Shown here one piece after another: positions 7,968 through 39,017 of a stretch of DNA of 64,000 nucleotides (the first letter of the stretch is position 1; every line of letters begins with the position of its first letter). The position numbers and the translations under genes were made by a program. Source of the DNA: Setoptus koraiensis (lineage: Eukaryota; Animalia; Arthropoda); NCBI GenBank assembly GCA_048013815.1, contig CM106586.1:744001-808000 (forward strand). Reading direction: 5' to 3'. The notes beneath the pieces were generated by a model. It saw nothing but the letters and a program-made list of their open reading frames with translations, was not told the DNA's origin and made no database searches.

Positions 7968-10900
7968 TACCAATACAATGCTAATAGTAATCTGTGCAAG
8001 TGACATTGATGTGCACTTGCTTGTTTTCGCAGCATCACAAATTTTCGGACACCCATGTTCATGTGAATATTGTAATTTCTGAACATGTTCTCACCGTAAG
8101 ACTTTCGTGAAAATTTGCACAGAGCACCAATACAATGCTAATAGTAATCTGTGCAAGCGACATTGATGTGCACTTGCTTGTTTTCGCAACATTCGAAATA
8201 TCCGGATGTCCCAGTCCATGTGAATATTGTGATCATCATTATCAAATTATTTTCCTCGTTAGAATCTGTCCATACTATTACACTATCTCCAATTATTAAA
8301 TATCCCAGTTATCTACAAATCATATCCATGTGTTTATAATAACGATTGTTTGCATCCATTCTCCTGCTACGCTCAATGCCACCCTCAGATGTTATATTCA
8401 TCTAATGTTTAGGTTAACACGCAACCTTCTTTGTGTGATAATCATGCATATTCAGTTGCAACTTCTGTCACTCAGTTTAACCGTTACTGTGCTACTCACG
8501 CCCAGCACTACTTAGCGTATCATAAATACTAGAATTATTTACTAGTTATACTGAGTAGTTTCTGCTGTGCTGTAATCTTCTAGTTACAACGCTCCTAGCT
8601 TACCGTGCGCCAAGTCCGAATTGTACGCAGCTTGGCTTCCTCTGTGCTAGATTCATCTAGTTAGCATCGCAGCATTGAGCGTGCTACTCCCGTCTAGTTT
8701 TATCTATAATAGCATTAACAGTGCTGAGAAGCAGTAGTTGTTCTGAGTAGCTTCTACTGTTCTACAATCTGCTAGTTCCATCACCTCTAGCTTCCAGTGC
8801 ACTAGATCAGAATTGAAGACAGCTAGCCTTCTGCTGTGCTAAATTCATCTAGCGAGCATCTCAGCATTGAGCGTGCTAATCGCGTCTAGTTTGTTTTCGC
8901 GCGCATAGCATCCTGTGTGCTAAATCTAACTAATCAACATTGTAAGCTCTAAGTGTTCTAAAGGACCACTTGCATTCAGGGTCTCCAGAATCAAACTGAT
9001 CTGACATATATAAATTCAGTATTTTTGTGATCGGAAGAGCCTTCTGATCACGAATATAACTATTGCATCATCCTTTAGTCCGACGTTTGGAAACTAGGCG
9101 GCGTTGCTGTTTTTCGCTTTGGGGGCCTCTGGAGCCCTAGTATTTTGTCATAGAGACACGTTCTTGGTATCGTTGGATGAATCTCCAGAAGATGCATCTA
9201 AAAATGGTATAATTTTCTCCTAGACTCGAATCCGAGTCCATCGAATGTATGCCTTCTACTGTACAAATTGTACGTGTCATTGCTGAGAAATTCTGAATCC
9301 TCAGCAATGACACTATGTCAATTTTTTCGTGCCTTTGACAGTGCTATTTGTACGTGTCATTGCTGAGAACTGCTGAATCCTCAGCTATGACGCTGTTCAG
9401 TCAAGTTATGTGCCTTTGACTGTGCGAAAATAGATGAATTCAGCACAGCAGAAGGCTAGCTGTCTACAATTCTGATTTAGTGCACGGGAAGCTAGATGCG
9501 TTGTAGCTAAGAGATTACAGCACAGCAGAAACTGCTCAACCATCCAAGGTATCTCAACGTTAACAATGTTATCCCTATGGAGATTGGACTTTGCCAATTT
9601 CACGTCAGTCTCTGTGTTAAAGTATCTAAACGTTAACAATGTTATCTCTATGTGAATTTGACTTTGACGATTTTGAAGAATTTTTAGCCCTTAATTTTAA
9701 TTAAGTTGCTATTGGGGTGGTGATAATGACGACGTTCATTCACGTGACAGAACAAATCAGTGCTATTTTTTTCTAGGAAAAATTAGTAGAGCAAAGGCGT
9801 CGGGAAGCATCTCGCAGGTTTCATCATTCTAAATCTATCTAGTTTGTTAGTACAGAGAAAGCTAGAAGGCGGAGTCATTTGGAAACAATTATAAAGTGAA
9901 GGCTGAGACGCTAACTAGTAAAAATTAGCATGCGACAATACTAGCTGTTTACGAATTGAATCTAGCACAAGGGAAGCTAGGAGTGCAAAAACTAGATGGA
10001 TAAAGTACAATGAAAGTCTTAAATGTTGACTTTCAAAATCTAGCACACGTAGAGCTAGGAGTCGGAGTTTTAAGAAATAAATTATACAGTAGAGGCTGAG
10101 ACACTAACTAGTAAAAATGAGTATGCGATGATACAAGCTGTTTACAAATTAGATTTAGCACTATGGAAGCTAGAAGTGCTTAAACTAGATGGATAAAGTG
10201 CAATGAGACGCTTAAATGTTGTCTTTTGAAATCTAGCACGGAGGAAGCTAGGAGGCGGAGCTATTAGAGAACTATTATACAGTAGAAGCTGAGACGCTTA
10301 CTAGTAGAAATGAGCATGCGATAATGATAGCTATTTACAAATTTCACTCATCAACACAAAGGAATAGCTCACTGCACACGTTCGCGCGTGTAGTATGTAG
10401 CTAACAAATCGTCTGCGCGCTCGCGCTCACGAGATGTGTATTGAGCTTGATCTGCTAACTGTGAACAGTTTGAAAGCTCACTTGGAGCTTTTGCTTTGAA
10501 CAATAAACATCTATTTGCCTATCTATCTATCTATCTGCTTGAATCTACTATACGCGCTATAACACATAGTGCGCCATTGATAGCTTGTTGTGTTGGCATT
10601 TGACATATATATCCAACTATGGTGAAAATTTGAGAAACCTGGATCTAGTCTGTAATACTCTATAACTGGTCTGAAACGACCAAACGACCAATTTAAATAG
10701 CACACCGCACACGAAGTGCGCGCTATAGCACACAGTGCACCATGAAATACTTGTTGTATCTATCTAAATTATTTATTGTAGCAAAACTGAGCGCTAGAAA
10801 TGAACCAATTTCCGCATGCAGGCAGCTAACATACTCATGCACCAATCTAAACTATTATATTTCATCAGCACTGTCGAAGGCACTCAATTTAGTCATAATA

Positions 10901-16369: not shown

Positions 16370-16560
16370 TGTTGGATATACGTTTCTGTGCTTATTAGCT
16401 GTGCAATCCTCACTATGTTCAGGCAGACTGTGCGCACTATAAATAGAACGGCACAGACTCTTGCTAATACATTGGTTGTCTAAGAAACGAACAGAACACA
16501 TCTAACTTTTTGCACATACAAATAAATACCAAACATAAATACACTGAGCTTTATTCTAAT
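16370..16560 (+). mobile_element. Putative copia LTR followed by PBS-like TGGTTAACAG
   Basis: Starts TGTTGGATATA; TATAAATA ~16438, AATAAA ~16521; directly upstream of gag; 3' end degenerate. Confidence 0.55.
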
Positions 16561-16627
16561 TGGTTAACAGCCAAAATAGCAGAAGCCAGCTCACACGCGA
16601 CCACCACGACAAAAAAAAAACAACCAG

Positions 16628-19292
16628 TATGGCGCAAAAACAAACAACAAATCAAACTCAACGGTGCGAATTTCCAAGTTTGGAAATTTCAAATAAAAAG
16701 AATAATAAAGAACAAGAAACTCGACGGAGTTGTGTACGAGAAAATCAAAATCGAAGACATGGCGAAACAAGATATAATCGACAAAGACGCGGAGGCGCAA
16801 GAAATACTGGCTACCTCAATCGAATCAAATGTTGTTCAAAAGATATTGAACTGCAACTCCGCGTTCGACATCTGGGACAGATTAAAAACAATCTACGAGC
16901 TCACAGGCGACGGGAACCTCGAAAACTTACTGAATAACTTTTTCACGATGGGCGAGGAAGAAGATGTCGCAGACTACATAGGTAAGCTAGAAGAGTTAGC
17001 GGTGGAGATTAAGAGTCTCGGAGAAGACCTGTCAGAGAAGATCCTGTTTCGTAGCTCCCTATCCAATGGTAGCAAGTGCAACATCACGCTCAAAGATGTT
17101 CTATATGTGCCAGGAATTACACACAATTTGGTGTCCATAGGAGAGGCGACGAAAACAGAGAACTTGGTGGTGTTCAAGGGGTCCAACTGTCAGATACTGA
17201 CTACGACCCAAAATGAACCCATAATCGAAGGAAAAATAGATCAGCACACTGGTCTGTACAAACTCGCCATACAACCGGTTGTAACTGCGGCTCTACTTGT
17301 GACCCAAACTCGCACCAAAATGGAGTGGCACAAAGCATTAGACCACCTCAATCAATGTCAAATTGAGGACATGTACAAACAAAATGCAGTTGACGGCATG
17401 ATACTCGAAAATCAAAAACAAACAGAAGACCCTGTATGCACTGACTGCATGCGTGGGAAAGGGAGTCACGTACCTCATCCGGTTATAGTGCAGAATAGCG
17501 CCACAGTTTTTTTGGGTATTTTTGGATATTTTCGGGTAGCGTATTGTACCCTGATACCGTTGTGAGTATTCCGGAAGTGCGGAAATTCCCAGTTCCTGAG
17601 ATAACCGACGTACCGCATGGGAGGCGTTTCTCGATACCCGACGTCCGCTATCGGTCTCTGGGGTATTTTTTTGAGGTATTTTGGGTATTTTTGGGTAGAG
17701 CGGCCTCTGGTGATCAGACATGTGAACTTTGGAAGTTGATGAAAGCGAACATATCCATAGGGGCGACACCAACATTTTGAGAGATTTTACGGCTTCGCCG
17801 TATTCAGAAACATGGCTGAGACTGATCTGAAGACTCGGCCTGCGGCCTCGTAGTCTGGAGGCCGTCACATCTCCGTCGTCGCTCCCGCGACGACTGCGTG
17901 CGACGGGAACCCTTCGGGTAGGGTTGATGAGCGCTTCGGGTATCGGGCTACGCCCTCTACCCTCCGCTCAAGTGACTGCAATTCATTTACTACGGCGGGT
18001 TCATGTCCTACACGGAGATTTGTTCGAATATCTTGAGAACCGGAAGTTGAATAATTCTGTAAATTATGCCAGTGTGCTCTCCATACTCTGACCTAGCTGC
18101 ATATCGAGTTTTAAGCCTGTATCTTGAATTTCATGTAAAACCGGAACCGGAAGTTTCCGCACTTCCGGACTAGTCAAACTGTTGTCAGGGGGCCCTACGG
18201 GTCCCATGTGGGAAGTTTTATCGACATCGGAGTGTGGCGCTATTCTGCACTAAACCCCCTCATCCGAGCTCAACTAGGATCAAGGCACTAATCCCTGGCG
18301 AAGCCGTTCACGCAGACTTGATCGGTCCAGTGACACCTACAAGCCTAGGAGGCAGTCGCTTTGTCCTCCTCTTCACAGATGAGTACAGTAGATATAGAAA
18401 TGCTTATTTTATTCAAACAAAAGACCAAGTTTTCAAACACATCGAAGAATATATCACCACAGTAGAAGTCGAGACAGGTCACAAACTCAGAACTCTCTAC
18501 ACAGACTGTGGTACCGAGTTCTGCAACAGTAAGGTAGAAGCAATTCTGAGCATAGAACACGTGAAACTCCAGACCAGTTCGCCCTATACTCCAGCTCTAA
18601 ATGGAGTTGCTGAGCGATCAAATCGTACAGCGATAGAGTCAACTCGGAGTATGATAAGTGCAGCAAACCTTCCGAAAGAACTTTGGAGCGAAGCGTTCAA
18701 CGCTGCAGTATACACACTAGAACGACCAACCAATCAAGCCGCGACAAGACCCCATACGAAAAATGGACGAACAGGAAGCCCAACATAGCCCATTTACAAG
18801 TGTGGGGCTCACCGGTCCAGGTATTGATAAATCCGAGAAAAGGATCTAAGTGGGACCCCAAAACCGTTCAGGGTTTTATGGTAGGGTATACCAACAAATC
18901 GAATACGTATCGCTGCTATGTCCCGAGCGACAACAAAGTAAAAATAACGTGCGACGTGATTTTTGAACGACAGCAGCCAACCGACGTCCATAAAGCAACA
19001 CAACCTCTGCACGAGCAAACAGAGAGCACTTGGACAAACAAGACGTCGGAACGCCTTGATCGTCCCACAACTCACACGACTACAGATGAGAGTCTATTTT
19101 CTGAGCAGGCCTTGAGTGAGACCATCGAGAGCCCAGACTATAGCAATCTCACAGTGGACAAGAGTACAGGTCCAATCAACTCTACGCTTGAAGCCCGAGA
19201 CGGACAATTAACTAATTCCCCAAACGCTGATGAGCCTGCCACAAACAAACTAATTATCTATCAACCGTCTGCGACGGATACACCGTTACTGA
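16628..19292 (+). pseudogene. Ty1/copia gag - pre-integrase - integrase (internal deletion; interrupted by MITE 17481-18257)
   Basis: KLNGANFQVWKF, AFDIWDRL gag; VLYVPGITHNLVSI; WHKALDH..CTDC; HADLIGP, TDCGTEF, NGVAERSNR integrase. Confidence 0.9.
17481..18257. mobile_element. GG-ended MITE, complete
   Basis: TIR TAGTGCAGAATAGCGCCAC; perfect TSD CCTCATCC. Confidence 0.9.
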
Positions 19293-19881
19293 CAAGGAAA
19301 CCCGTATCCCTCCAGTTCATCGATGCTATCGACATCGAAACGCTTGATTCACCGACAAAAATTCATCTTTATTCAGTTCAACCTGCTACGATTCACCGAC
19401 ACTATCGACATCGACACGCGATTAATCGAATTCCACGACACCGAAACGATCATTCATCGACGCTATCGACGTCGAAATGCTCGATTCGCCGACAAAAATT
19501 TAAAGCCATTCAGTTCGCTACCCGGTCCATTGCGGGCCCCGCCCTCGGGACTCCCAGCCCTCGGGAAGAATCATTTTTAGTTTGGTGGCCGTCAGTCGTC
19601 CCGCCTACGGCCGCAGGCCGTAGGCGTGGACGACTGGAGGCCGAACCCCACCTCCCGCCGGGCCCAAAGCTGCATGGCAGGCATGCCCTGAGGCAGCAGC
19701 CGAAGTAGGCCGTCGTCTTTTTTAGAGTACAGGAGGCTATTTGAGGCAATGAGATAAAGATTGAGCAATGTTTATTTATTTCTGGTTTGAATATGACTGC
19801 ATGTGCATGTCATTATAGTTTTTCTACAACTTGTTTGCACCGATTTTTCTATAATAATGAGAATATTTGCTGCTCATCCAC

Positions 19882-21387
19882 TTACAAATCTATCAAAGAT
19901 TTGATTTGCTGGCCTATAGCGGTTAGAAATTCCTCTGTCGAACGTTGTGCTCTACTTGACATTATTTCTAATATCTGTTTCTCTTTTGCATTGTATTTTT
20001 TGCTGATTGCGCAATCCTCGCCTCGGTTAACACGGTCCATCAGTCCTTGTTGGTGATGAGCCTCGCTTCTTAAATGTGTGATGAGTTTGAATACGCCCGG
20101 ATGAGCGATACCAATAACCTGTTTTATTCGACGATGCCAGGCCTCGACAGAATTTTGTGTGCGCGGTAGGCCTTCGAATACCAGATCTTTTATGGACCAA
20201 AAATCCGGTAAGAATCGGGTAAGTCCTTGGCTTTGTGAGCTTCGTGAAGGACTTTCAATGTAGTTGTCTCTGAAATAAACCAAGAATTCTGATACTCTGG
20301 CATCATCTGACATGCCACTGGCAATGTTTTCGAAGGCTTCTTCGATTTCAAATGGTTCTAGAAAGGCAAGCGATATTATTTTGCGAACATCACTTACAAA
20401 CTTTTCATCCTCACCATACAGTCTTTTCAATCCTCTCGCTACAATCGCGCGGTATATGATCTGTCCAAAGTGGAACAGACAGCCTCTTTGCTTTGCTACC
20501 GGAAATTCGTCTTTACACGCCCGGATAGCAGCCCTTTCGAAATCCGAAAGTATAAATCTCGGCTCGAAAACTAGCTGCTCTTTTATACAGTAGCTCTTGA
20601 GATCTTGAATTAGTTTTTTGTAGAGTGCGACGGTTTTTGAGCTCATGAGAGCAAAAACTAGTGGGAAGGCTCTTCGTTTCGACCCGGCTCCAACCATCCC
20701 AAATATGCTGTAGAGCTGATAAAACATTTGCGGAACTACATAAAATGTACCATCCATTATAAGCATCTCAGATGAGGCCAGGTACGTGAGTGACTGTTTT
20801 GTACCGAATGAAATAACCCTGTGCGCTCCTACAACTGAATCCGCGATGAGGAATGGTCCTCCGTCGATTGCTGTCGCAATATCTTCTGGTATGACCAATT
20901 CATCTATATTCGATGGCTCCTTTATTGTGTCGGTCTGCTTCCTTACTCTTCTGATGATCTGGGCCTCGGCTGATGTGCTTGGCATTGTTGCCAACACCTC
21001 TCTCGAGGCTTCAGAATGCACTCGCGAAATTATCTGGCACGGTTTTGCGCTTCCTGTAGCCATCTCCTTGATTTTATGAATCAAGTCTCCACGCGCCTTC
21101 TTGCTTACCGATGGCGGATGGTCGTGTTCGCCGGATTCGGAATGGTAGTGGTGCTCTTGATTTACTAGAATTGTCTGCAGACGGCCTGTGCAACGTCTGG
21201 TGAAATACTCGGTGCATTTCCAGTAAAACTTATCCTCTCTGTTGCGGTCTTTGTAATAGGAGAACCCCTCAACAATCAAAAGTAACTTACCTTTTTCGGT
21301 ATATGTTGTTGAAACTGTTTTTGTTTCAGTGTCGGTTGTCTCGGTGTCCATGGTGTCATCTTGGTTCGAATCGAATGTTTTATCCAT
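19882..21387 (-). CDS. MULE (Mutator-like) transposase with FLYWCH zinc finger, 501 aa, intact
   Basis: EGFSY..FYWKC..C..HDH; IMDGTF, ILSDFE, CLFHF, TQNSVEAWH catalytic motifs. Confidence 0.92.
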   Translation of the reverse strand: MDKTFDSNQDDTMDTETTDTETKTVSTTYTEKGKLLLIVEGFSYYKDRNREDKFYWKCTEYFTRRCTGRLQTILVNQEHHYHSESGEHDHPPSVSKKARGDLIHKIKEMATGSAKPCQIISRVHSEASREVLATMPSTSAEAQIIRRVRKQTDTIKEPSNIDELVIPEDIATAIDGGPFLIADSVVGAHRVISFGTKQSLTYLASSEMLIMDGTFYVVPQMFYQLYSIFGMVGAGSKRRAFPLVFALMSSKTVALYKKLIQDLKSYCIKEQLVFEPRFILSDFERAAIRACKDEFPVAKQRGCLFHFGQIIYRAIVARGLKRLYGEDEKFVSDVRKIISLAFLEPFEIEEAFENIASGMSDDARVSEFLVYFRDNYIESPSRSSQSQGLTRFLPDFWSIKDLVFEGLPRTQNSVEAWHRRIKQVIGIAHPGVFKLITHLRSEAHHQQGLMDRVNRGEDCAISKKYNAKEKQILEIMSSRAQRSTEEFLTAIGQQIKSLIDL

Positions 21388-21422
21388 TGAAGTCTTGATT
21401 ATATTGATCGGATATTGGACAC

Positions 21423-21725
21423 GAAGCTAATTGATGAACAATACTTGATGAAGTGTAACGAGTTGAATAATACTTTTGTTTGTTTGAAGAAGTTGACACG
21501 AAGCGAATTGATGAATGATATTTGATGAAGTGTAACGAGTTGAATAATACTTTTGTTTGTTTGAAGAAGTTGTCACGAAGCGAATTGATGAATAATATTT
21601 GATGGAGTGTAACGAGTTGAATAATACTTTTGTTTGTTTGAAGAAGTTGTCACGAAGCGAATTGATGAATGATATTTGATGAAGTGTAACGAGTTGAATA
21701 ATACTCTTGTTTCTTTGAAGAAGTT
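21423..21725. repeat. Tandem repeat, 77-bp unit, ~4 copies
   Basis: AAGCGAATTG recurs at 21501, 21578, 21655. Confidence 0.85.
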
Positions 21726-22262
21726 GGTCTATTTGAAGAACTTGCAACATATAGCACGAGCGAGTTGCTCGTGCTCTTGCGACATGTCCGCAACCAATGT
21801 CTGTTGCTGGGCCCGGGCAAGATGTTGCAACAATTGTGTAGCGAGCAAACATGTAGAAGATGACCTTTGCTACATGTTTGTTCGCTGCACAATTGTTGCA
21901 ACATCTCGCCCGGGCCCAGCAACAGACATTGGGCTGGGGGTCGAGTGGGCAGGGCCCGCAAGTTGCAAACCTTTTCCAAAGAATGAACAAGAATGAAGAG
22001 AAAGGTGCAAGACAACGGAGAGTGAGCGACAGAGAGCTAGCAAGTTAAAAGTGTCGTCGGATTTATTCATTTTATAGTTGGTACAAATTAGAAGTTGAAT
22101 ACAATTAAATCATCATTTGATTCTGTCTTGGTGTTGCCATGTGTTCCTGTTTTAAGGTTTTCCTGTCATCTGGTTTTCCTGTTTTCCTGTCATTTTGTTT
22201 TCCTGTTTTCTTGTCATCTTGTTTTCATGTTTAATCCGTTAATTAGTTGCGTATTGGCTACA

Positions 22263-22742
22263 CTATTCATCAGAATTAGCATCGTCTGCCGCATTTTTCG
22301 AAGCAATTGCCACTACTGAATCGAACAAAAACTTCAGCAGGAAAACCTGGCGTTTCTTTCGCGATCTTCCTCCAAATTCTCTTTCAAATTCAGCCTCTCT
22401 TTCAATTTGTTGCCATTGCTCTTCAAAAGGATTGTCATGAGGATTGTTGACATTAGAGTTCAAGGCAGGATTATTATTGGTTGGCGCAGGATGAGTATGG
22501 ATTGGGACAGGATGAGTATGGATTGGGACAGGATGAGTATGGATTGTGACAGGACGGCTATATGGTACTGTATTGGTTGGACGACGCGCCGTTTCCTTGA
22601 AGTTATACTGCCTGTTATACTTATTAGGTAGCGTCGCTGGCCGGCGTCTTGGTGGTGGATTCAAGCCAACAGCCACAAATGACGAAATAAATATAACAGC
22701 AATCATAATGAGTGCGAACTTCTGCATCTTGCTTGGTGACAT
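22263..22742 (-). CDS. Secreted prepro-peptide-like protein, 159 aa (MULE cargo)
   Basis: Signal-like KFALIMIAVIFISSFVAVG, PIHTH repeats, acidic spacer, RSRKKR furin-type site, hydrophobic QVFLLKFLFDSVVAIAS; minus-strand TATAAATA at ~22855 with TCATTT downstream. Confidence 0.7.
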   Translation of the reverse strand: MSPSKMQKFALIMIAVIFISSFVAVGLNPPPRRRPATLPNKYNRQYNFKETARRPTNTVPYSRPVTIHTHPVPIHTHPVPIHTHPAPTNNNPALNSNVNNPHDNPFEEQWQQIEREAEFEREFGGRSRKKRQVFLLKFLFDSVVAIASKNAADDANSDE

Positions 22743-23859
22743 TTTGTTGGTTGCAATCTTCTATAGTTATTACTGACAATTTTGTTGGTTGCTATCTATT
22801 GTTATCAATGCTAACTATCTAATGAAATGATGCGATGGAGTGGTGCGCGCACCAGTATTTATACCCATTGATTTCAACCAACTCGACTCGACTTTACGAC
22901 CTTTCAGGGTGACCTTTCTCGGTGACCTTTCTTGTAGTTGTTGGACCTGCCCGGGCCCACGATAAGTGCGGGCTCAAGATAAAGATGGGCCCTTTCGACA
23001 CGCGCCTAAATCGACAGGAATTCCTCGCGGTTCGGCATGAGAATAATAAACGTGTTGTCTCCTTTGGGTCGCGCCAAGAAAATGTCGTTCTACACGTCTG
23101 CAAAGAGACGCTACACGCACGCCGCCAAATTCAATAAAGATGGGCTCTATCGACACGCGCCTAAATCGACAGGAATTCCTAATCGCGGTTCGGCATGAGA
23201 ATAATAAACGTGTTGTCTCTTTTGGGTCGCGCCAGGAAAATGTCGTTCTACATGTCTGCGAAGAGACGCTTCACGCACGCCGCCAAATTCAACAATCCTC
23301 ATGACAATCCTTTTCCGAAATCGATCATTTCATCGACAGAGGGGTTCAATTCATCGAACCATCCATTCGAATTTGATCGATTCAATTTGTCGATGAAACC
23401 TATGTCGGTGAATTGAATGAAACTAATTTGAATCGATGGTTCGATGAATTGAACCCCTCTGTCGATGAAATGATCAATTTCGAGCAATTCTTATTTCGAT
23501 AAACAAAGTGTCGATGAATGCATCGTGTCGGTGAATCGTAGGGCACCCAAGGAAACCTATTCAGCTGATAGACTCAGATTGAGTCCTCGTTAGCCTAGAT
23601 CGACTCAGCTCGAGGAGCTGAGCAAAATGGGTCTATACCTAGCCCCGTTTTATCCCGACTTTTTGCAATTTTCCGATAAAAATTTCAAAGTTCTATACCC
23701 TATTTGATATGACTAGAGATGCTCCAGAGAGCGTCAGAAAGGCAATTTTAGAGGAGTTTTAATTCAAAGTTTTCAAAGTTCAGAGTTTTATTTGTTGCTA
23801 CAATTTGTCACGCGTGACTGATACAAACTTAAGCCTATGCTCGTATCTCTCCATCGCAA

Positions 23860-25949
23860 CGGCTGCTAGAGGCACAACTTGAGTTAACTTGAATGTGAAG
23901 CGGTGTAGGATGTTACACATGCTTAATGAAATCATGCTGTATTTCATGGAAACACACCCTTTCCAAAAACTGTGGGAAAGAACTTTGCCACAGTGAGAGC
24001 ATAAAATGAATCTGTGATTTCCACACCCTGGAACCTCACATGTTGTCGCTTTGTCAGAACCGAATCTGAATTGCACGGCCTCAACTGTGTCGGGTTGTCC
24101 ACCAATAGACATTTCATCGTCACTGTAACCTGGATCTGTGTTATGCCAGGCATGAATCAGAAGATCCTGGTAACCTGGCGCTGACAACTGGTTGAAAACC
24201 AAAGATTGCATGTTTATGATGCCTTCTCTACTTATCACTTTGTCTTTGATTCCAATGATTGCTGCCTCCATGGATATGCGTTTTACAATTTTTTTTGTAT
24301 TGGCGGTTAAAGCCAACATCTAACGGTTGAAGTTCATCGGTAGTTCTTCTCGGAATGTCAAGAATTTCTATGCCTTTGCATTTGAGAGCGGCACGGTTGC
24401 GAGGATTGAGATGTCCCGACCAGTGATCCAGAAGCAGCATAGTATCTGGTTCTGGTATCTCCACGATTTTTGGAGTGCTTCCTCGCGAAGACCCCGCTAC
24501 CAGCCCGTGAGCTGGCATCGAGGGTGTTTTGAACATCAAAGTCGACCAATCTATAGAACGATCATTCCAATTAGGTTCATTTGCCATGTATGGGCGTTCA
24601 CCCAACACTGGAATGAGGACATCAGACATCCACCGATATAATAGCTCGCTTTCCAGTTTACCAGATTTGCTCGCAATAACATGTACATTCTTATACTTTC
24701 TCTCCAGACCAGCAACTGTCTCTGCAACTCTCGGCCCAAACTTTCCACTCGCCTCCTGCATAACTATAAGTAATTTTCCAATGAGATACCCATTTCGAGA
24801 AATCACAGGCTGTGTAGTGTATGAATGGGAGACTTTGTTCTTGGCTTGAACTGCCTCGGCCGTGTCTCGCTCACCGGCGAAAGAAAGTGTTCGTTTACCG
24901 GCAAACTCATAAGGAAATCCCACCTGATCTGTATTCAAGATGGCATATGAAAGGAATCTGTCGGCGTTCGAAGCGTATGTCTCGCGAAAATGGGCAATAT
25001 TTTCTTGATCAAGAGCTTTCATGGCTTGTTCTGATCTACCTTCAACCTTGGTGATAGCACGGGAGACAATTCCATTCCTACGCTTGAAATTGTGTAACCA
25101 AAACGACGTGGCTCGGAAGTAAACATTTAAACCAAGCATGTCAGCCTTGGTCCATGCCCACTCCTTGAGATGAGCCTCATGAATCTGCTGGTGTCGTTCG
25201 CGAGCTGACACGAATTCAGCCAAGACGTAGGCATCAATTTGTAGGTATTTCTCTTTTAAACTTCCCCCGTTCGACACGATTTCTCTAAATCTTTGTGTGT
25301 GATAGTATTGGAACCAACGGTATTTGGCCTTAATTGTTCTGTAAGATTTCCCCTCGTCAACCATCTTTAGAATGTTTTTCATAGTTGCAAAGGATTTCAT
25401 CACAGTGCTACCAATGTCAGCGTTTATATTAAATTCAAAATCATCATCTGTTAGCGAACGAGAGACCCCTTCGGAGGCTTTGCCTTCACTCTCACTCTCT
25501 GAAGAAGAAGAAGGTGCCTTCCCGGACATCCATTCATAGAGTTGCTTCGCTTTCACCATCTCGTCAGATTCCTTCAATCTCTTTGAATGCATCTTGTAGA
25601 CAGAGGGGCTCTTTGTAGCCAACTGGAGGCCGATATCCAGAATTTTGGTCATTTGTTCTTTGGATAATTTTTCTTTGAACAGTAGAAAGCCTTTGGGCTG
25701 TGGATTTTGTTCGGATGTCTGTTGAGAATTCTGTTCGTTGCTTGGTTGAATAAATTCTTCTCCCTCAAAAACCAACTCCTCATCAATGATTGATCCTGTT
25801 TCAGAATCGTCAGGAGCGAGGTCGTCGGAATCGTTTGATGTTTCAATGCCAGATGCAGCCTCTGTATCAGAATCTGTTTGTGATAGAGGCCTGCATAGTA
25901 TTGCACCAGAAAGCAAACAAATCAGTGTAAGGCAAACGAGTATTTTCAT
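23860..25949 (-). CDS. Signal-peptide-bearing pogo-type transposase (CENP-B HTH + DDE_1, DD35D, C-terminal Cys-rich domain); frameshift in T8 run at 24289-24296
   Basis: MKILVCLTLICLLSGAILC-RP; WLHNFKRRNGI; NTDQVG, LLLDHWSGH, QPLDVG with 35 residues between D2 and D3; CEVPGC..CSHC. Confidence 0.88.
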
Positions 25950-26489
25950 CCTTAAAATACGCTAGGTAACAAGAGAAGGATAGTTGAAGTAATATTTGCG
26001 ATGATACCAGAAAGAATGTGATTTTATATCTAACATAAATTATCTGAATGTATGACAGAATAAGACAAGACGATGACTCATAGAAAGTCATTATGTCACA
26101 CCACCGTAGAGCAAGCTCATCTTGACAAGGTCGTCTGCATACTAATTTGTATTGAAAAATACATTATTGATGGTCGCACTGCGTTGTAGCACAGTTGATA
26201 GATAATCTATGTGCAAATGTCCTTGAATCTTTAAACTTATCAGCTCTATACGTTCATACAAATCACTCTAGACTCTCTTAAACAGTTGAGATTGCCTTTC
26301 TGACGCTCTCTGGAGCATCTCTAGTCATATCAAATAGGGTATAGAACTTTGAAATTTTCATCGGAAAATTGCAAAAAGTTGGGATAAAACGGGGCTAGGT
26401 ATAGACCCATTTTGCTCAGCTCCTCGAGCTGAGTCGATCTAGGCTAACGAGGACTCAATCTGAGTCTATCAGCTGGATAGGTTTCCTCG

Positions 26490-28077
26490 TGAGTTATCAC
26501 CCAGAGCCATCAAGACAAGATTCAGGACCACCAACTGTGTCGAAATTCTTTGGGCTCATGGCTTATATAGACCCAACGTCGTTCAAAGAGGCGATGGCAG
26601 GCCCTGACAGTGCAGAATGGCAGACGGCGGTGGACAAAGAAATAATGGCTCACCAAGAGAACAAAACTTGGACGGTAATAAAAACGCCAGTCGGTGCAAA
26701 CCTTATAACCTCTCGCTGGGTGTTCAAAAGAAAAACATTAGCTGATGGGTCATTGGATCGCTATAAAGCGCGCCTGGTGGCCCGCGGTTACGATCAAAAT
26801 TATGGTCAAGAATACAACGAAACCTTTGCGCCGGTCGCGCGACACGAAACCATCAGACTTATGTTTGCACTGGCAACGAATCATTCGTTGAAATATCTAC
26901 AGTTCGATGTGGAAACCGCCTTCCTCCATGGTGAACTGGAGGAGACGGTGTTCATGGCCCCTCCAGCTGGAATGGACTGCCCAGGAGGGCACGCTCTCAA
27001 ACTCAATAAAAGTCTGTATGGGCTAAAACAGGCCCCGAGAGTCTGGAAAGAGAGTCTTGACAGCATCCTCGCCAAAATTGGCTTAAGAGCAACTACGTCC
27101 GATCCTTGCCTCTATCTCGGCAAAATATCGAATGAGGACGTCATGCTCATCATTTATGTCGATGATGGGCTGGCGTTCTCCACCAGTGGGCATGCGCTCG
27201 ATCAGCTACTAGGACAACTGTCACAATCACTCAAAATGAGGAAAGTGTGTGATAATACCTTCGTAGGATATGAATTCAAAGTTGGTGACTCATGCACCGT
27301 CCTCCAGGAGACCTACATCCGTCGAATGTTGAGGGCATACCAGATGGAGGAATGCTTGGAAGCGTCATCACCGATGGTCGACACGGTGGACCTTCAGAGT
27401 AAATCTGATAAGGACGAACCCAGCGAAGCTCCGTATCGCCAACTGATTGGATCTCTCCTATACTGCGCTTGCTGTACACGACCAGACATCTTATATTCGG
27501 TGTGCTTCCTCGCCAAGTATACGAACCCAATGGCAAAACATTGGACCGCCGCAAAGAGGATTCTGAGGTACCTCAAGGGCACAAAAGAACTAGGCCTGAA
27601 GTACAACAAGGTCGGGCCCTTTGAAGTTGAATTTTCATCCGACGCCGATTGGGCGAACAATCCGTGAGAAAATCCGTGAGTGGAATCATGGCCACCGCCA
27701 GTGGTGGACCAGTTATGTTCACCAGCAAACAGCAAAACTTGATTGCCTTGTCTACCACGGAGGCAGAATGTATAGCTGCTTCGTCGGCCGCGAGAGAGAT
27801 TTTATGGGTCAGAAGATTTCTCGAGGAAATAAAGGAAATCGTAAAAACAAGGCAAACAATTAAACTTTTGATTGACAATCAGCCAACAATCAAACTTATT
27901 GCTAACCCAGAGTTTAGAACGAGAACAAAACATCTGGACATCCGACTGGCGCACCTCCAAGACAATGTTAAGAACAAAATGTTCAACATTGAACATGTGG
28001 CCAGTGACAATCAAAAAGCAGACTTACTTACAAAGTCGCTGACGCCAAGAAAGCACGCCTCAAAAGGATCGGCATGA
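26490..28077 (+). pseudogene. Ty1/copia reverse transcriptase and RNase H (continuation of 16628-19292)
   Basis: YKARLVARG, FDVETAFLHG, LYGLKQAP, YVDD, SDADWA; RKSVSG, RTKHLDIR, ADLLTK. Confidence 0.95.
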
Positions 28078-28306: not shown

Positions 28307-28623
28307 TCAACGCGCTGAGGTCTCGAACAGGTCCTGAGGATCTCTTCGGAGACGTTGTAAGCCGATAGTTTCCTCTCTTGATTTCTGGAGTTTACGTAAT
28401 TTTATGCAAACCCAGATGAGGATAACGCCGGTTATTGATAGCAGTAGTGAGGCGGTGATGGTTCCCAGTGTGCTGGATCCGTACCTGGCTAGATACGGCA
28501 TGTTGATTGTTTTCGTCGCTCCTGGATCTGCTTCTTCGGTTAATTTGGACAGTTCGGCGATTCTGTCTAACATGAGCGTCGCCGAATCGTGATTGGGTTC
28601 AGTGGACAGCATAGAGGTCCAAT
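28307..28623 (-). CDS. Gypsy env C-terminus: TM anchor and cytoplasmic tail
   Basis: TLGTITASLLLSITGVILIWVCI then KLRKLQK; rejoins 29475 in frame (HQIVKNWTSML) after HINE removal. Confidence 0.85.
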
Positions 28624-29474
28624 TTTTAGCGCTTAATTTTAATTAAGTAGCTATTGGGATGGTTCTGGGCTCTACGTTTATTCACGTGGGTAGAACAAAT
28701 CAGTGCTTTTTTCAACTAGGAAAAAATAGCACGGTGAAAGCTGTACTGTGAGAAATAAACTAGATAAATTTAGAACACTCAAAGCTTACAATGTTGATTA
28801 GTTAAATTTAGCACATACAATGCTATGCGCGTTCACTTACTAGACGCGATTAGCACGCTCAAAGCTGAGATGCTAACTAGATGAATTTAGCACAGCAGAA
28901 GGCTAGCTGTATACAATTCGGATTTAGTGCACTGGAAGCTAGAGGTGTTGGAACTAGAAGATTGTATAACAGTAGAAACTACTCAGAATGTCTACTGCTT
29001 CTCAGCACTGTTGATTCTAATGTAGATAAAGCTAGACGAGAGTAACACGCTCAATGCTGCGATGCTAACTAGATGAATTCACATAGTGCGCCATCGCGTC
29101 CTGGTGTATGTATTGAAATTATTTATTGTGGCGAAACTAACCGATAAAAGTGCACCAATTTTTGCATGCAGGCAACAGACATGTACATCCAACTATGGTG
29201 AAAATTTGAGAAACCTGGATCTAGTTTGTGATACTCTTTAGATGGTATGAAACGACCAAACTACCAATTTGGATAGCATACTGCACACGAGCATCTCAGC
29301 TATACCACTATGTGGTATAGCTGAGATTTCTTGTACTCTTGGCTACCAAGTATGCATCAATTCATCGATTGCGAGCGCTAATGGGTTGTCATAAACTCCT
29401 CCTAATCTATCAACGATAATCGTCTACATGAAAAATTAAGCGCTCGAAATACTGATTTGATCAGTATTACTTGT
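28624..29474 (+). mobile_element. Helentron-like HINE, complete, inserted at TT in gypsy env
   Basis: TTTTAGCGCTTAATTTT ... AAAATTAAGCGCT + hairpin + ACTTGT; empty site CCAATTCTTC restores the frame. Confidence 0.92.
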
Positions 29475-31350
29475 TCTTCACAATTTGGTGTTTGGTCGCT
29501 GCTAACGTTCCGATATTTGACCAAATGTGTGATCTGGTTCGCCATGGTTGGTCTATGGGCAAGCTAAATACGAAAGGAGGGCAACGCGCGCTGACGTTAG
29601 CCAGCTCAATACGTCCTTTCAAACAGTATATGTAGGCGCGTTCTCCATCAACTTTCACGTCCTCTCTCTCCTCTATGTGATTTAGGTTGCGGTGGCATAC
29701 GATATTCTTCCATGATGAATTTCGTTCTGGCAGGAAATCCTTTTCATCACAAGTCAGAGCTAGTTCTTTTCCCACCGGGGTCGATAGGATCGGGCGCGTG
29801 CAATTGGCTGTGCTGTTGTATAGGACAAATTTATGGCCTGTGTACTCTTGCAGACACGGCTTGCCTGTCAAGTTATTATAGACTCTGAAGGCGTCGGACT
29901 GCAGCAGGTAGGAATTCTTGTCTACGTTCCTGGTCGTAAAGCGCAATTTGATAATATGCGGAGCCAGTTTAGTACAAGAATGCGTCGATGAGGCTAACAT
30001 GTTCACGTTAATTAACTCCGATATATTGGTGAATTTTCCCAATTCTGGAGATATAAGGTCATTGTTCCAAGCGTTTATGGCCCGATCGAGTTGTAAGCCT
30101 GCGTCTCGGATGGCATTCTGAACGTACAATGTTGTCCAAACTTGGTATGGCCAGTTGCGTGCCATTTCGTGGATGTCTTGGGTGTTTGTATTCACCTGTC
30201 TGGCTAAGGTTCGGTACAACTCGGTTTGCGTTTTAGTTACCATGTACGCCTTATCAGCGTGTTTGAGAAGCTTATTTAATTCGGCCGTCAGGATGGTTAC
30301 CTGTTTTTGAGTTTCGGCGTCGTTGTTGGGATGGAAATAGCCATGGACGGATTCTACGATGGACGAAACCACGTATTCGAATGCAGCGCCTGCTCCAAAT
30401 TCCAAAATTCCAATCTGTCGTTTTACTCTGGTACTTTCGTGTTCAGTTTGGTCGGTGCACCAATTGTCCAGCCGATAAAGAATTTCCTTCTCGTAAAATT
30501 CTTGGCACATTTTGTATAAATTGTTATTCAGCGCTTGATTTGGCGAAGACACTAACTCTTTGCACGGCGATTTCACAGCGATGGTGAGATCCCACGATTT
30601 TGTCCCTTTGACGATTTGAGTATCGGTTTTACGCCACACAACTGGTGGTTCATGTCTCCATATCATCTCGCCGAACACGACGTTGATGATACACGTTATG
30701 GCGATGCTTTTGGTGATAAGGTTCATCGTTGACCTAGTGGCTGCTGTTTGTGCAGGTTGGTAGTTGCTCGTACTTGGTTGATTGATGCTTGTACTCGGTT
30801 GATTGATGCTTGTACTTGGTTGATCGATGTTCGTGTTTGGAGAGTTATTATTCGACTGAATTGAATGGTCGTCGGTGTCCGTCTCGGAATCGTCGTTTCT
30901 TGGAGTGAAAGCCCTCAAGACTGAGACATGTCGCGAAATTTTCTTGTGGTTTATACAGTGTTCCAGCTCATATATATTATTCGCGCTGACTTTGGTGACA
31001 ATATATGGGCCGTCACTTTTGTTTGCTAGTTTAGCGCCGCGCGCAAGCTTTTTCAAGGCCCAAACTTTGTCGCCTGTGTTAAATGTCAGGTCTCTTCGTG
31101 AGGCGTCGTATCTTTTTTTTGACGCCGCTTGGGCTTGAGCGTTTTGGTTCATGGCGTGCGCCATGTTTTCTTCTAGTGTCAATTTCATCAGCTTAGTGTA
31201 TAGTTGGTGGATTGACATTTTTTCCAGAGTAACATTATCTTGATAAAGGAATGGTTTGCGACCATACATTAATTCGTATGGTGTCATATTGGTTGACGAA
31301 TGTTGAGTAATGTTGATGGCAAATGTGATCATTGGCAGTGCTTCGTCCAA
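29475..31350 (-). CDS. Gypsy integrase C-terminus (GPY/F) fused in frame to env (signal Met at 30726)
   Basis: TPYELMYGR, GDKVW, DGPYIV; linker; MNLITKSIAITCIINVVFG, WRKTD, SPC, CQEFYE, RVKR + QIGILEFGAGAAF. Confidence 0.88.
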
Positions 31351-34103
31351 TTTGCCATACTGTAATCGTCGTTGCTATTTAATACCATTGCCAACTTGTC
31401 GCCAATCGTTTCGTTGGCGCGTTCGACTAACGCGTTGCCTTGGGAGTGAAAGGGCGTCGATCGGATGTGGTGTATCTTGTGCAGCTTACACAGCTCCTTG
31501 ACCACTTCCGCTCCGAATGTCTGCGCGTTGTCGGTTAGTATATTCTCCGGTATCCCGTACCGGCATATGATATTCTCGTTTAAAAATTTAGCGAATTTGA
31601 TAGACGAGATTTCTGAAGTGGCAGCGGTTTCGATGTAACGCGAAAACGCGTCGATAGCCACAAATATGTGGCAATTCCCTCTAACCGAATCGGGCAGTTT
31701 GCCAATACAGTCGATAGCTACGATTTCGAAGATTCTACTGCATTGGAAGGAAGACATGAGGCCCGCCTGATTTTGTCGTGGGATTTTTCTGCGTTGACAC
31801 GTTTCGCAACTGTCGACATAGTTGCGGACGTCGCTTTTAATCGAAGGCCACCAATACTCTTCTTGCAGTTTTGCAAGTGTGGCTTTCCGGCCGCCGTGAC
31901 ACGCTAGGAAGTCGTCGTGTGCACGACGGAGGAATTGTTTTCTTAATTGGGCTGGTATAAATAGCTTATTGTCGTCATTGTAAATCACTCCGCTTATCGT
32001 TTTGACTCCGTCACCCGATGCGGCGCGAGCCAACATCCCCTGCGCCTCGACTGAGGAGTCATAATTCGCTATCCATTCTTCGTTGTTCACGAGGATGATC
32101 ATACATATGAATATGACTGCTCTGTCCGGAACATAGTCGTGCTCATCAACTGGGTTCCGTGACAGGCAGTCAACATCCGCATGTAGATATCCCCTTACAT
32201 ACTCGATTGTTATATTGTATTCGTTGAGCAGTGCGCTCCATCGCGCTAATTGAGGCGATACAGGCCTTTTTTTGCCCAGCACGCATAAGGCACAGTGGTC
32301 CACGAGGACAGTCACTGGCCGACCCAATATGTAGGCACGATATTTGTCTAGTGCCCATATTAAGGCTGCTGCCTCTAATTTGGTAATCGAGTAATTTTTT
32401 TCGCTTTCATTCAGTCGGCGTGATGCGCAAGCCACAATCATCCAACCTCTTTCGTGTTTTTGTTGGAGGATTGCGCCGAATCCTTCGAGGCTTGCATCAG
32501 TTTTTAGGCGTGTTTCCAGCTTAGGGTCGAAGCACGCCACGCACAAGTCTGAGCTGAGAGCGTCTTTGAGTAGATTGAACGCGTCTTCTTGCTCTCTTTG
32601 CCACACAAAGGGAGCGTTTTTTAATGTCAAATTTACGAGCGGTGCAGACATCTCTGCAAATGCTGGTAGAAAGCGTCTGTAATAAGATGCTTTTCCGAGA
32701 AAGCATCGTATTTGTGTTATGTTCTGTGGTCGCGGGAAGGCTTTAATTGCCTTCACTTTTTCAAAGTCGGGCTGGATGCCGTTCTTGGAGATATGATGTC
32801 CGAGAAAAGTAATGGCCGTTGCGCCCAGAATACATTTGGCCGGTTGTAACTTTAAATTCGATGCTCGGATGCGTTTGAACACTGTCTTTAATGACGCGAT
32901 GTGGTCGCTCCACGTTGGTGAAGCGACGCAGACGTCGTCAATAAAGACCATCAATGCTTCGTTTTTTAGGCCACTAAAAATGGCGTCCATTAAGCGTTGG
33001 AAGGAGGCGCCAGAGTTGGATAAACCAAAGGGCATGGCTTTAAATTGCCAATGCCCGTCATGCGTGCGAAATGCGGTTATTTCGCGCGATGATGGGCTCA
33101 TTGGAATCTGCCAGTACCCGGACTTAAAGTCCAATAAAGAGAAATATACTTTATTGGCCATAAAGTCCAGGCAGTCATCAATTCTTGGCAGCGGATATGC
33201 GTTTTTTTTTGTTTTGGCGTTGACTGCCCTGTAATCAACGCAAAATCTTGTGTCGCCATTTCTTTTTTTCACCAGCACGTAGGCGCTGGCCCACGGCGAC
33301 GTTGATTCTTCAATTATATCCTGTTTGATCATCTCAGCTATTTGCTGAGATACGGCTTTTTTTCCACTGGTGCATGGCGACGGAGTGGTTCGGCGATTGG
33401 TACGGCGTCCGGTAGCAATTCTATTTTGTGTTCGCACAAATTGGTGCTGCCAAGTTCGCCTTTGAAGGCAAATATATCAGAAAAATTATTCATTATATTT
33501 GAGATGTCATTCAGTTGTTCTGGCTTTAAATCGTCGCCAACTTGGATAGTTGCGCCTTCTTCGTTTACCGGAAGTATGGCGTTGCAATGTATAGGTTGTA
33601 CGTTGTCATCGTGCTCGTTAAGTGCTTCATATCGAGCGATCGTAGCTCCTTTGGCTATTGTTATCGGTACTTGGGTTGCATTCATTACTAAAATGTCGCA
33701 ACGTGATTTAATCGGTCTGTATATACCGTTTGCGATGTTGAGTCCTGCGTTATTGTTTGAGGGTTTTGTTAGAATCTCGTTTGTGGTATTAACGATGACG
33801 CTAACGAATTTTTGTGACCTTGTAGGAATTTTTACTGTTTGGGCGGATATCACGGGCCCTTTTGGTTTTGATGTCGAACTCTCGGAATCGATCAGGTTGA
33901 TTGAGGTTTGTGTTATTTCCTCATCTTCGTCGATGTAGCGCAAGGTTTCTTTGGTGTCGCATTCAATGCAAATTCGCAATCGGCTGAGCGTTTCTTTGCC
34001 GATTATTACGTCAACTGGTAGGTCCCGTATGACGTGGTATTCGATGTACAAAATTTTGGATGTGTTATTCAGACGGATAGTTGTCTTTTGGATTGTTACG
34101 CCC
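31329..34103 (-). pseudogene. Ty3/gypsy protease - RT - RNase H - integrase (two 1-nt frameshifts in homopolymers; 5' end in gap)
   Basis: DVIIG, RFCVDYR, MPFGL, VFIDD, KTDAS, H..H..CETC, IDCIG/TDNA/LVER. Confidence 0.95.
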
Positions 34104-34603
34104 NNNNNNNNNNNNNNNNNNNNNNNNNNNNNNNNNNNNNNNNNNNNNNNNNNNNNNNNNNNNNNNNNNNNNNNNNNNNNNNNNNNNNNNNNNNNNNNNN
34201 NNNNNNNNNNNNNNNNNNNNNNNNNNNNNNNNNNNNNNNNNNNNNNNNNNNNNNNNNNNNNNNNNNNNNNNNNNNNNNNNNNNNNNNNNNNNNNNNNNNN
34301 NNNNNNNNNNNNNNNNNNNNNNNNNNNNNNNNNNNNNNNNNNNNNNNNNNNNNNNNNNNNNNNNNNNNNNNNNNNNNNNNNNNNNNNNNNNNNNNNNNNN
34401 NNNNNNNNNNNNNNNNNNNNNNNNNNNNNNNNNNNNNNNNNNNNNNNNNNNNNNNNNNNNNNNNNNNNNNNNNNNNNNNNNNNNNNNNNNNNNNNNNNNN
34501 NNNNNNNNNNNNNNNNNNNNNNNNNNNNNNNNNNNNNNNNNNNNNNNNNNNNNNNNNNNNNNNNNNNNNNNNNNNNNNNNNNNNNNNNNNNNNNNNNNNN
34601 NNN

Positions 34604-35622
34604 CTCTGTACGAGCACCTGGAACTAGTATCGGAAATTCGAATTTTCAATTTCGAATTTCCAAGTTCGAAATGTGACCATCGAACTCTGACCACCGAACT
34701 CCGACGGAGCAGATGGAACTATCATCAGAGAATCGAATTTTCAATTTCGAATTTCGAAGTTCGAAATGTGGCCATCGAACTCTGACCACCGAACTCCGAC
34801 GGAGCAGATGGAACTATCATCAGAGAATCGAATTTTCAATTTCGAATTTCGAAGTTCGAAATGTGACCATCGAACTCTGACCATAGAACTAAGAACACTC
34901 AACCACTAACTTCGAATTGTGACCATCGAACTCTGTACGAGCACCTGGAACTAGTATCGGAAATTCGAATTTTCAATTTCGAATTTCCAAGTTCGAAATG
35001 TGACCATCGAACTCTGACCACCGAACTCCGACGGAGCAGATGAAACTATCACTAGAAAATCAAATTTTCAATTTCGAATTTCGAAGTTCGAAATGTGACC
35101 ATCGAACACTGACCACCGAACTCCGACGGAGCAGATGGAACTATCATCAGAGAATCGAATTTTCAATTTTGAATTTCGAAGTTCGAAATGTTACCACCGA
35201 ACTCTGACCATAGAACTAAGAACACTCAACCACTAACTTTGAACGAGCAGCTAAAACTCTTATTAGAAATTCGAATTTTCAATTTTGAAGTTCAAATTGT
35301 GGCCACCGAGCTCCTCACAAATTCGACCTAGTCAAATCTCCATAGGATTGCATACGAAATATTTTCGAGTAAAGCGATAATAGACCAAGTCAAATCTACA
35401 TCGGAATACATGTGTAATATCTAGCAGGATTCTCACAAATTTGACTAAGTCAAACCTCCATAGGATTACATAGTCACGTGAATGAACGTAGAGCCCAGAA
35501 CCATCCCAATAGCTGCTTAATTAAAATTAAGCGCTAAAAGCACTCATTTGTTCTACCCACGTGAATAAACGTAGAGCCCAGAACCATCCTAATAGCTGCT
35601 TAATTAAAATTAAGCGCTAAAA
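34604..35622 (-). mobile_element. HINE 5' part with TCGAA satellite and duplicated 5' end
   Basis: rc TTAGCGCTTAATTTT at ~35525 and ~35608 (83-bp tandem); satellite 34604-35300. Confidence 0.75.
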
Positions 35623-35632
35623 ATTACACGTC

Positions 35633-39016: not shown

Positions 39017-39017
39017 T

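Follow-up and report, generated by a model that had tools for sequence, protein, structure and literature searches.

Transposases are held to function in the nucleus of the producing cell, and the locus described here raises the question of why a transposase of the Tc4/Tc5 type should begin with what looks like a signal peptide. The window, a 64,000-nucleotide stretch of DNA from Setoptus koraiensis, carries the main transposase ORF on the reverse strand at 24231-25949 (573 aa), in which a predicted signal peptide, an acidic linker, a two-helix domain, a CENP-B-type HTH pair and a DDD catalytic domain follow one another. Its N terminus reads MKILVCLTLICLLSGAILC-RP and continues into an acidic tract, as the first-pass annotation had described. 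The signal peptide (19 aa; 25893-25949, reverse strand) was predicted by a heuristic of hydropathy and -3/-1 rules, with probable cleavage between ILC and RP and A at -3. The best 10-residue hydropathy of this start was 3.27, and a value of at least 2.5 was reached by 7 of the 126 ATG ORFs within the window. The catalytic triad was found intact, as annotated: D341, D508 and D544 are present, the last two separated by 35 residues (DD35D), and the predicted structure model of the transposase gives a match to Mos1 (Z 11.4, rmsd 3.1, 148 aligned) as well as to CENP-B. The domain check proposed with that annotation placed DDE_1 above its cut-off and HTH_Tnp_Tc5 just below; Transp_Tc5_C was also just below, and intact relatives reached the cut-offs for all three.

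The C-terminal part of the transposase, with the Transp_Tc5_C Cys/His domain and a decayed tail, lies in a second frame (23801-24319, reverse strand). This zinc domain would need to survive an oxidising ER. The frame is broken at a T8 run (24289-24296), and this break is real, the contigs of sequencing runs X1 and X2 over 24088-26320 matching the window without a gap. The homopolymer frameshift had been recognised before, but it was not the only defect: the window text also has a premature stop within the tail and a second frame break near 23970-23976. The contigs covering this second break all carry a small indel relative to the window, and the break may therefore be an assembly error. Given the frame breaks and the early tail stop in the window text, the window copy is broken and is not itself mobile.

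The span of 7.2 kb that had been taken for one mobile unit was resolved into a broken Tc4/Tc5-type transposon proper of ~2.95 kb (23548-26489) carrying a nested Mutator-like insertion of 4.25 kb (19303-23547), which is not part of the Tc4/Tc5-type element and lies ten bases inside one of its ends. The first-pass annotation had overlooked this insertion. The single 7.2-kb element was rejected because a 9-10-bp duplication brackets the MULE-bearing insertion, which also has subterminal repeats, and because the end in question is unbroken in other copies. The TIRs are 199 bp each with 4 mismatches, the downstream one at 23548-23746 and the upstream one at 26291-26489; the earlier estimate of ~200 bp was thus sound, but the inner copy had been misplaced to 19293, where only the outer 10 bp of the downstream TIR (CAAGGAAACC, 19293-19302) are found, severed from the remainder by the nested insertion. 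The TGA target-site duplication (19290-19292 and 26490-26492) had been read correctly, flanking 19293 and 26489 within a copia element, and the target C-TGA-G is of the form that defines Tc4/Tc5 insertions, C-TNA-G with a TNA duplication. The host is a copia-type retrotransposon (gag, integrase, SH3, RT) at 16468-28077 on the forward strand, which is split by the insertion and also broken elsewhere. Insertion into it, likewise proposed earlier, was borne out by the empty site, 19289 being joined directly to 26490 in contigs from three of four sequencing runs. The family of the window transposon moved recently.

Judged by its sequence, the window element is a broken member of a clade of Tc4/Tc5-type DNA transposons with predicted signal-peptide transposases. 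In trees built from unnamed database hits only, the clade branch had an SH-like support of 100 (120 rows), and on core columns alone the clade formed one side of a branch with an SH-aLRT of 95 (43 rows). The sets compared were 64 clade rows, 44 of them N-complete, and 55 sister Tc4/Tc5 proteins. The median core identity of the clade is 41.5%, and the catalytic Asp residues are kept in 64/64, 54/54 and 50/52 of the clade rows with letters at these positions. The family copies are bounded by TIRs and TSDs, multi-copy and in part decayed. One complete element (L014) is flanked by TCA in a C-TCA-G target and has an intact 707-aa ORF with a predicted signal peptide; a second (L001) is flanked by TGA, with A at the last target position, and further copies start after ...CTTA and ...CTCA. 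The TIR ends CA/GAGGAA are common to the window family and the sister elements. These bounded, repeated and decayed copies speak against a domesticated host gene without transposon ends, and the Crinkler-like effector or toxin role suggested at first is not supported, for the same reason and because the catalytic triad of the relatives is intact. No clade relatives were found in the viral contigs searched, no homology was detected between the two-helix N-domain of the clade and the sister N terminus (hhalign probability 0.9%), and a Foldseek search gave no match at E<=0.001; the single-sequence fold of P0033, an intact relative (pLDDT 36.7), was set aside.

The predicted signal peptide is a family trait. 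A signal-like start (hydropathy of at least 2.5) was found in 37 of the 44 N-complete clade members and in 0/55 sister proteins. Among MULE relatives of the nested transposase it was found in only 1/92, and the idea that this MULE transposase, too, has a signal exon is not supported. Of the 42 clade signal peptides called by our own hydropathy and -3/-1 rules, 39 had a -3/-1 cleavage site and 32 a basic n-region; the signal peptides are unrelated in letters yet share the same n/h/c layout. These data strongly suggest that the transposase enters the secretory pathway, and the earlier claim of a Tc4/Tc5-type transposase with a predicted signal peptide holds across the whole clade, together with further marks of that pathway.

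The first of these marks is a loop inside the catalytic domain with a median of 58 aa in the clade versus 3 aa in the sisters. The Cys count was even in 31 of 38 Cys-bearing loops, 22 of which had four Cys. By column permutation, loop sequons were in excess (50 observed, 27.4 +/- 4.3 expected) and core sequons modestly depleted (60 versus 72.6 +/- 6.3, z -2.0); the sisters had 117 where 120.5 were expected. Sequons of the N-terminal linker were not enriched (17 versus 12.6). A strong depletion in the core, obtained with a plain shuffle (z -5.1), was rejected as overstated, as the control QxS/T was depleted in both groups. The tail has a median length of 71 aa in the clade versus 11 aa in the sisters. 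The motif [HNR]DEL[KRA] was found within the last 22 aa of 9/40 tails (shuffle mean 0.019), and a dibasic [KR]R[QES] site followed the signal peptide in 7 cases versus 0.8 in shuffles, these shuffle values not being probabilities because the tail and dibasic patterns were defined post hoc and the rows are related. An HDEL-type motif was exactly terminal in 0/64 rows, and DEL occurred within the last 30 aa of 0/55 sister proteins. Only 4 of the 9 HDEL-type tails could be unmasked by removal of basic residues alone, and 31/40 tails, that of the intact L014 included, were without the motif. The putative entry tail appears to differ between subclades, being a masked HDEL in some, a hydrophobic, Gly/Ala-rich stretch with EIPLL at its end in others and a GGCGC terminus in others still. 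The Gly/Ala-rich tail was aligned for 8 clade members, and nothing usable was matched to it in Pfam, among PDB sequences or in the ESM Atlas. The import-like motif K[KR]x[KR] was present in 12/53 clade linkers (shuffle mean 0.85) versus 3/55 sisters and absent from 41/53; of the 10 proteins in which no Met separates signal peptide from HTH, 5 had such a basic cluster. An Arg-over-Lys bias is a feature of ER-retrograde proteins, and the measure was 0.38 in the clade versus 0.61 in the sisters; as a sign of ER dislocation it was dropped, since sisters of similar GC scored alike (0.34-0.40) and the window copies (0.48-0.56) resemble the window MULE (0.50). The window copy itself has a loop without Cys, a single sequon, a linker without an import-like motif and no clear HDEL.

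The explanation we favor, at a probability of roughly 0.45, is that the transposase is secreted, re-enters another cell, for example from soma to germline, reaches the nucleus and moves the element there. The protein would enter the ER through its cleavable signal peptide, form disulfides, receive glycans and pass through the Golgi. The later steps are modeled on the K28 killer toxin and Pseudomonas exotoxin A, which, in the portions of the accounts considered here (PMC5735513 and PMC4584936), are made as secreted precursors, contain disulfides, are processed at dibasic sites and carry an ER-retrieval motif hidden behind a basic residue (HDELR and REDLK); K28 alpha finishes in the nucleus of the target cell (PMC5735513). 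By this analogy, proteases might unmask the tail once the transposase is outside the ER of the producing cell, the receiving cell might carry it backwards to the ER and release it to the cytosol, and import into the recipient nucleus might follow. The likely gain would be that enzyme from somatic cells acts on silenced germline copies. Somewhat more tentatively, the same analogy suggests a self-delivering secreted protein whose toxin-style route mobilises copies in other cells without capsid or envelope. The likeness to the two toxins would be one of route only, with no relationship of sequence or fold claimed; the clade differs from them in that its cargo is a transposase and not a toxin, the motif is found in 9/40 members and a receptor-binding subunit was not identified.

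A somewhat unlikely alternative is that the transposase enters the ER yet acts within the cell that made it, part of the protein being returned to the cytosol and then to the nucleus; the detour would limit activity or shield mRNA or protein from host silencing. This would cover the signal peptide, the paired cysteines, the sequon pattern and the import-like motifs without any uptake, and it agrees with the many tails that lack an HDEL-type motif. However, retention in the producer's ER would favor an exposed motif, and the motif is never terminal; the dibasic sites, a post hoc pattern, and the Thr-rich tracts would further point to processing in the late Golgi.

Two products from one gene are unlikely: transposition would be carried out by a nuclear isoform that arises through a downstream start codon or a different first exon, and the secreted form would have a separate role, for instance as a decoy or, if the host feeds on plants, as a salivary protein, which corresponds to the effector reading of the first-pass annotation. 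In 60% of the signal-peptide members the first HTH opens with a Met, and some related loci come from 'plant metagenome' records. However, this Met is equally common in sisters without signal peptides (29/55 versus 32/64 rows) and is therefore probably structural. Of 8 copies checked, 7 have acceptor-like tracts in the linker that joins signal peptide and HTH, which makes a nuclear isoform produced by splicing possible, but these tracts occur at unrelated positions. The first ATG had a purine at -3 in 9/9 cases checked, 10/42 proteins lack any Met from the end of the signal peptide to the DNA-binding domain, and in 4/42 there is none up to the first-HTH position, so that the dual starts entertained at first are disfavored. 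That the secretory marks of these mobile elements lie within the catalytic domain and the tail would also imply selection on the element.

It is highly improbable that the genes are domesticated host genes, or that the hydrophobic start does not function as a signal peptide and is due to chance, to gene-caller error or to an internal anchor whose upstream exon was missed. An AG acceptor-like tract in frame 12 nt upstream of the window ATG makes an upstream coding exon possible, the sister proteins were predicted by gene callers, which may overlook exons, and the signal peptides were called heuristically, but the contrast of 37/44 with 0/55, the n/h/c layout retained by unrelated signal sequences, the independent luminal marks (loop sequons and paired Cys) and the bounded, multi-copy, decayed copies all argue against such readings.

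To our knowledge, only particle-forming elements cross from soma to germline. The env-bearing gypsy/ZAM retrotransposons are mobile elements that cross between cells by a signal-peptide protein. Mavericks with the MFUS-1 fusogen likewise use one for crossing, in the part of the report considered (bioRxiv 10.1101/2022.07.12.499685); in both, the signal peptide is on the envelope or fusogen and the nucleic acid is in a particle, whereas in the window clade the predicted signal peptide is on the transposase, and no capsid or env gene was found in the complete elements L014 and L001. From Tc4/Tc5 of the Tc1/mariner-pogo group, the clade is set apart by the predicted signal peptide, an acidic or Thr-rich linker, the catalytic-domain loop of ~58 aa with its paired Cys and the long tail; the main text of a Tc4/Tc5 paper contains the term 'signal peptide' 0 times (bioRxiv 10.1101/2023.11.06.565293). 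Bogo of Blepharisma (pogo/Tc2-type) resembles the clade in DDE_1 plus HTH_Tnp_Tc5, DD35D and non-autonomous deletion derivatives, but has another TIR, and the portion of its report considered mentions a signal peptide 0 times (bioRxiv 10.1101/2022.05.02.489906). Literature searches found no description of such a clade. Whatever the mechanism, the retention of a predicted signal peptide alongside an intact active site across dozens of lineages at ~41% core identity breaks the expectation for transposases. If the enzyme moves between cells, DNA transposons would gain a way of escaping silencing in the germline, and there would be a naturally occurring protein that carries a genome-editing enzyme into cells.

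The nested insertion encodes a FLYWCH and MULE transposase without a signal peptide (19885-21426, reverse strand) and, separately, a signal-peptide ORF with an RSRKKR site and no Pfam family at cut-off (22266-22760, reverse strand). The Tc4/Tc5-type family is represented twice more in the window, both times on the forward strand: a third fragment covers an HTH_Tnp_Tc5 region (56638-57036), and a second, decayed member (41118-43080) has an RRQ site after a predicted signal peptide of its own, which differs from that of the main copy.

The element that the first-pass annotation had read as a Tc4/Tc5-like pogo transposon with a signal-bearing transposase belongs, on the sequence evidence, to a new Tc4/Tc5 clade whose transposases are built like secreted proteins. 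A representative search (E ≤ 1e-30) gave 158 clusters, of which the best 150 were listed; of 157 proteins, 34 of less than 400 aa and 3 cluster mates were removed, leaving 120 in the tree. This tree divided into groups of 65 and 55 rows (SH-like support 100), the 65 being the clade and the 55 its sisters, and the split was retained in an unrooted tree of core columns only (21 + 22 rows; SH-aLRT 95). After removal of one near-copy, 64 clade rows remained, of which 44 had at least 35 residues ahead of the two-helix domain and the 20 shorter ones were not counted. The best 10-residue hydropathy was at least 2.5 in 37/44 clade proteins versus 0/55 sisters and at least 2.0 in 40/44 versus 9/55; the controls gave 1/92 for MULE transposases and 7/126 for window ORFs. 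A −3/−1 cleavage site was present in 39 and a basic n-region in 32 of the 42 clade proteins scored, and all nine DNA-backed starts had a purine at −3. The claimed signal peptide was therefore borne out as a predicted one and as a trait of the whole clade. Clade cores had a median identity of 41.5%, with the catalytic Asp residues retained in 64/64, 54/54, and 50/52 rows with letters there.

In the window, inverted repeats of 197 to 199 bp with 4 mismatches were located at 23548-23746 and 26291-26489, and a TGA target duplication adjoins both 19293 and 26489. The long repeats and the TGA described earlier were thus recovered, but the downstream repeat is the one at 23548-23746, and 19293-19302 holds only ten bases, a copy of the inner repeat's start. 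The 4.25-kb stretch between 19302 and the inner repeat is edged by a 9-10-bp duplication and holds a FLYWCH-MULE transposase. Together with the detached ten bases, this was deduced to represent a Mutator-like insertion into a 2.95-kb element, ten bases from its end. What had been taken as one mobile transposon at 19293-26489 is therefore a Tc4-type element in an interrupted, broken copy. Its host site is the integrase/RT interval of a copia retrotransposon, consistent with the earlier reading that removal restores the pol frame; contigs of three of four runs join 19289 directly to 26490, an empty site that may be either the other allele or a different copia copy. Within the Mutator-like insertion, 19534-19800 is a short repeat of very high copy number (in sequencing runs X1 and X2, contig depths sum to about 32,000 to 36,000 versus about 115 nearby). 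The insertion also holds a signal-peptide ORF at 22266-22760 (minus strand) with a Pro/His repeat and an RSRKKR site, after which comes a hydrophobic stretch; no Pfam family reached the cut-off for it, and 26 bp of it reappear in inverted orientation at 23289-23314.

The main transposase ORF (24231-25949, minus strand; 573 aa) matched DDE_1 and, weakly, HTH_Tnp_Tc5, while Transp_Tc5_C follows it in a different frame. The DD35D triad was confirmed as D341, D508, and D544, and the homopolymer frameshift as a T8 run at 24289-24296, where X1 and X2 contigs agree without gaps; a second frame break near 23972 in the window text was contradicted by all contigs covering the site. An AlphaFold model (pLDDT 70.5) matched Mos1 (Z 11.4; rmsd 3.1; 148 residues aligned) and CENP-B (Z 8.0). 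According to the accessible text of the Tc4 paper, these elements are defined by a C|TNA|G target and a DDD triad and occur in nematodes, arthropods, and tardigrades (bioRxiv 10.1101/2023.11.06.565293).

Contigs contained deletion derivatives (23810 to 26132 and 23669 to 24124) and further copies with an unbroken end preceded by ...CTTA or ...CTCA, flanks which show other insertion sites of the family. Contig depth, which is not copy number, was about 124 to 126 over the coding part versus 830 to 1020 for the downstream repeat bin (X1 and X2). Judging from these sequences, the family moved recently, while the window copy itself cannot move. A second, decayed member lies at 41118-43080 (plus strand) with its own, different predicted signal peptide, truncated by a satellite, and a third decayed fragment at 56638-57036 (plus strand). 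Among 64 loci found in a metagenome scan, one (L014) is a complete element with TCA on both sides and an intact 707-aa ORF with a predicted signal peptide, and another (L001) has TGA on both sides and a frameshifted signal-peptide ORF; in the names of two "plant metagenome" records, coverage is given as 910 and 1749. The clade genes are accordingly classed, by sequence, as transposons rather than host genes.

Further signs of the secretory pathway were found along the chain. The catalytic-domain loop has a median of 58 aa in the clade versus 3 aa in the sisters. Of 51 loops longer than 25 aa, 13 lack Cys and 22 have four, arranged C-x9-12-C...C-x10-11-C; the even number in 31 of 38 Cys-bearing loops is the pattern expected of disulfides, which we infer to form there. 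N-glycosylation sequons were enriched in the clade loop (50 versus 27.4 ± 4.3 expected) and mildly depleted in the clade core (60 versus 72.6 ± 6.3; sisters, 117 versus 120.5), with no enrichment in clade linkers. The share of variable Asn residues that form sequons was 49/173 for the loop, 43/474 for the core of clade proteins, and 97/691 for that of the sisters. The nested MULE transposase (19885-21426, minus strand) lacks sequons over its 514 aa, and 0 or 1 occur in each of its five closest relatives, although none of these proteins has a signal peptide, so the sequon argument calls for caution. Tails have a median of 71 aa versus 11 aa in the sisters (40 rows each). An import-like K[KR]x[KR] cluster occurs in 12/53 clade linkers (shuffle mean 0.85) versus 3/55 in the sisters, and [HNR]DEL[KRA] lies close to the end, never exactly terminal, in 9/40 clade tails (shuffle mean 0.019). 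This tail pattern and the dibasic pattern [KR]R[QES] behind the signal peptide were picked after the sequences were viewed, and the rows are related. An Arg/Lys bias was dropped as a clade mark after a composition control removed it. The window copy has one sequon, no loop Cys, no import motif in the linker, and no clear HDEL. Two other tail types were seen: a Gly/Ala-rich hydrophobic stretch, perhaps a membrane-crossing segment, ahead of an EIPLL-like motif in one subclade (P0003, P0006, P0010, P0015, P0017, P0030, P0035, P0036, L051, and L052), without a match in the databases searched, and a terminal GGCGC, GACGC, or GSCDCY-like Cys motif (L003, L061, P0048, and P0059).

Taken together, the signal peptide, luminal marks, import-like motifs, and intact active site suggest that the protein enters the ER but must still reach DNA. 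We hypothesized, with a probability of about 0.45, that the transposase would enter the ER via its signal peptide, leave the producer cell, and re-enter another; the presumed payoff would be delivery from soma to germline. Such cell-to-cell action, if shown, would make the clade categorically new. In the accessible texts on K28 toxin and exotoxin A, a masked ER-retrieval motif lets the toxin escape retention in the producer before its backward travel to the target-cell ER, and K28 alpha finally reaches the nucleus (PMC5735513, PMC4584936). A nonterminal, possibly masked HDEL-type motif occurs in the 9/40 clade tails; 31 lack it, and trimming of basic residues would unmask just 4 of the 9. An ER detour within the same cell, which likewise begins with ER entry and ends at DNA, is possible but doubtful. 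Slightly less probable are two isoforms, or an effector role: acceptor-like tracts lie 3′ of the signal peptide in 7/8 copies, but at unrelated positions among them. In 5/10 proteins without Met between the signal peptide and HTH, the basic cluster lies in a stretch exclusive to the signal-bearing chain. A nonfunctional leader is very improbable beside the luminal marks further down the chain.

No description of signal-peptide transposases of the Tc4/Tc5 group was found among titles and abstract openings of the open literature; repeat libraries in supplements could contain such elements unremarked. The term "signal peptide" is absent from the accessible text of the Tc4 paper and of the Bogo paper (bioRxiv 10.1101/2022.05.02.489906), and the Maverick paper uses it for the fusogen only (bioRxiv 10.1101/2022.07.12.499685).

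At locus L035, an intronless 450-codon WIPI2-like gene, nearer human WIPI2 (E 2.5e-125) than yeast Atg18 (3.9e-57), adjoins a sister element without a signal peptide, and short repeats are common to this locus and clade loci L017 and L039. Since the gene is intronless and eriophyoid mites are described as intron-poor in the accessible text of PMC7738191, a plant-dwelling mite might, as a weak guess, be the source of these three loci. If the link between L035 and L017/L039 holds, one host has elements both with and without signal peptides. Other ORFs with a signal-like start were also noted. In the window, a Gypsy-type element (28310-34645, minus strand) carries pol and an env-like ORF that has an RVKR site and starts with hydrophobic residues. 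Another env-like ORF, with a signal peptide, lies at 38437-39036 (minus strand). Locus L027 holds an intronless 338-codon signal-peptide ORF without a Pfam match (6108-7121, minus strand), flanked by inverted repeats at 5593-5671 and 8028-8106.
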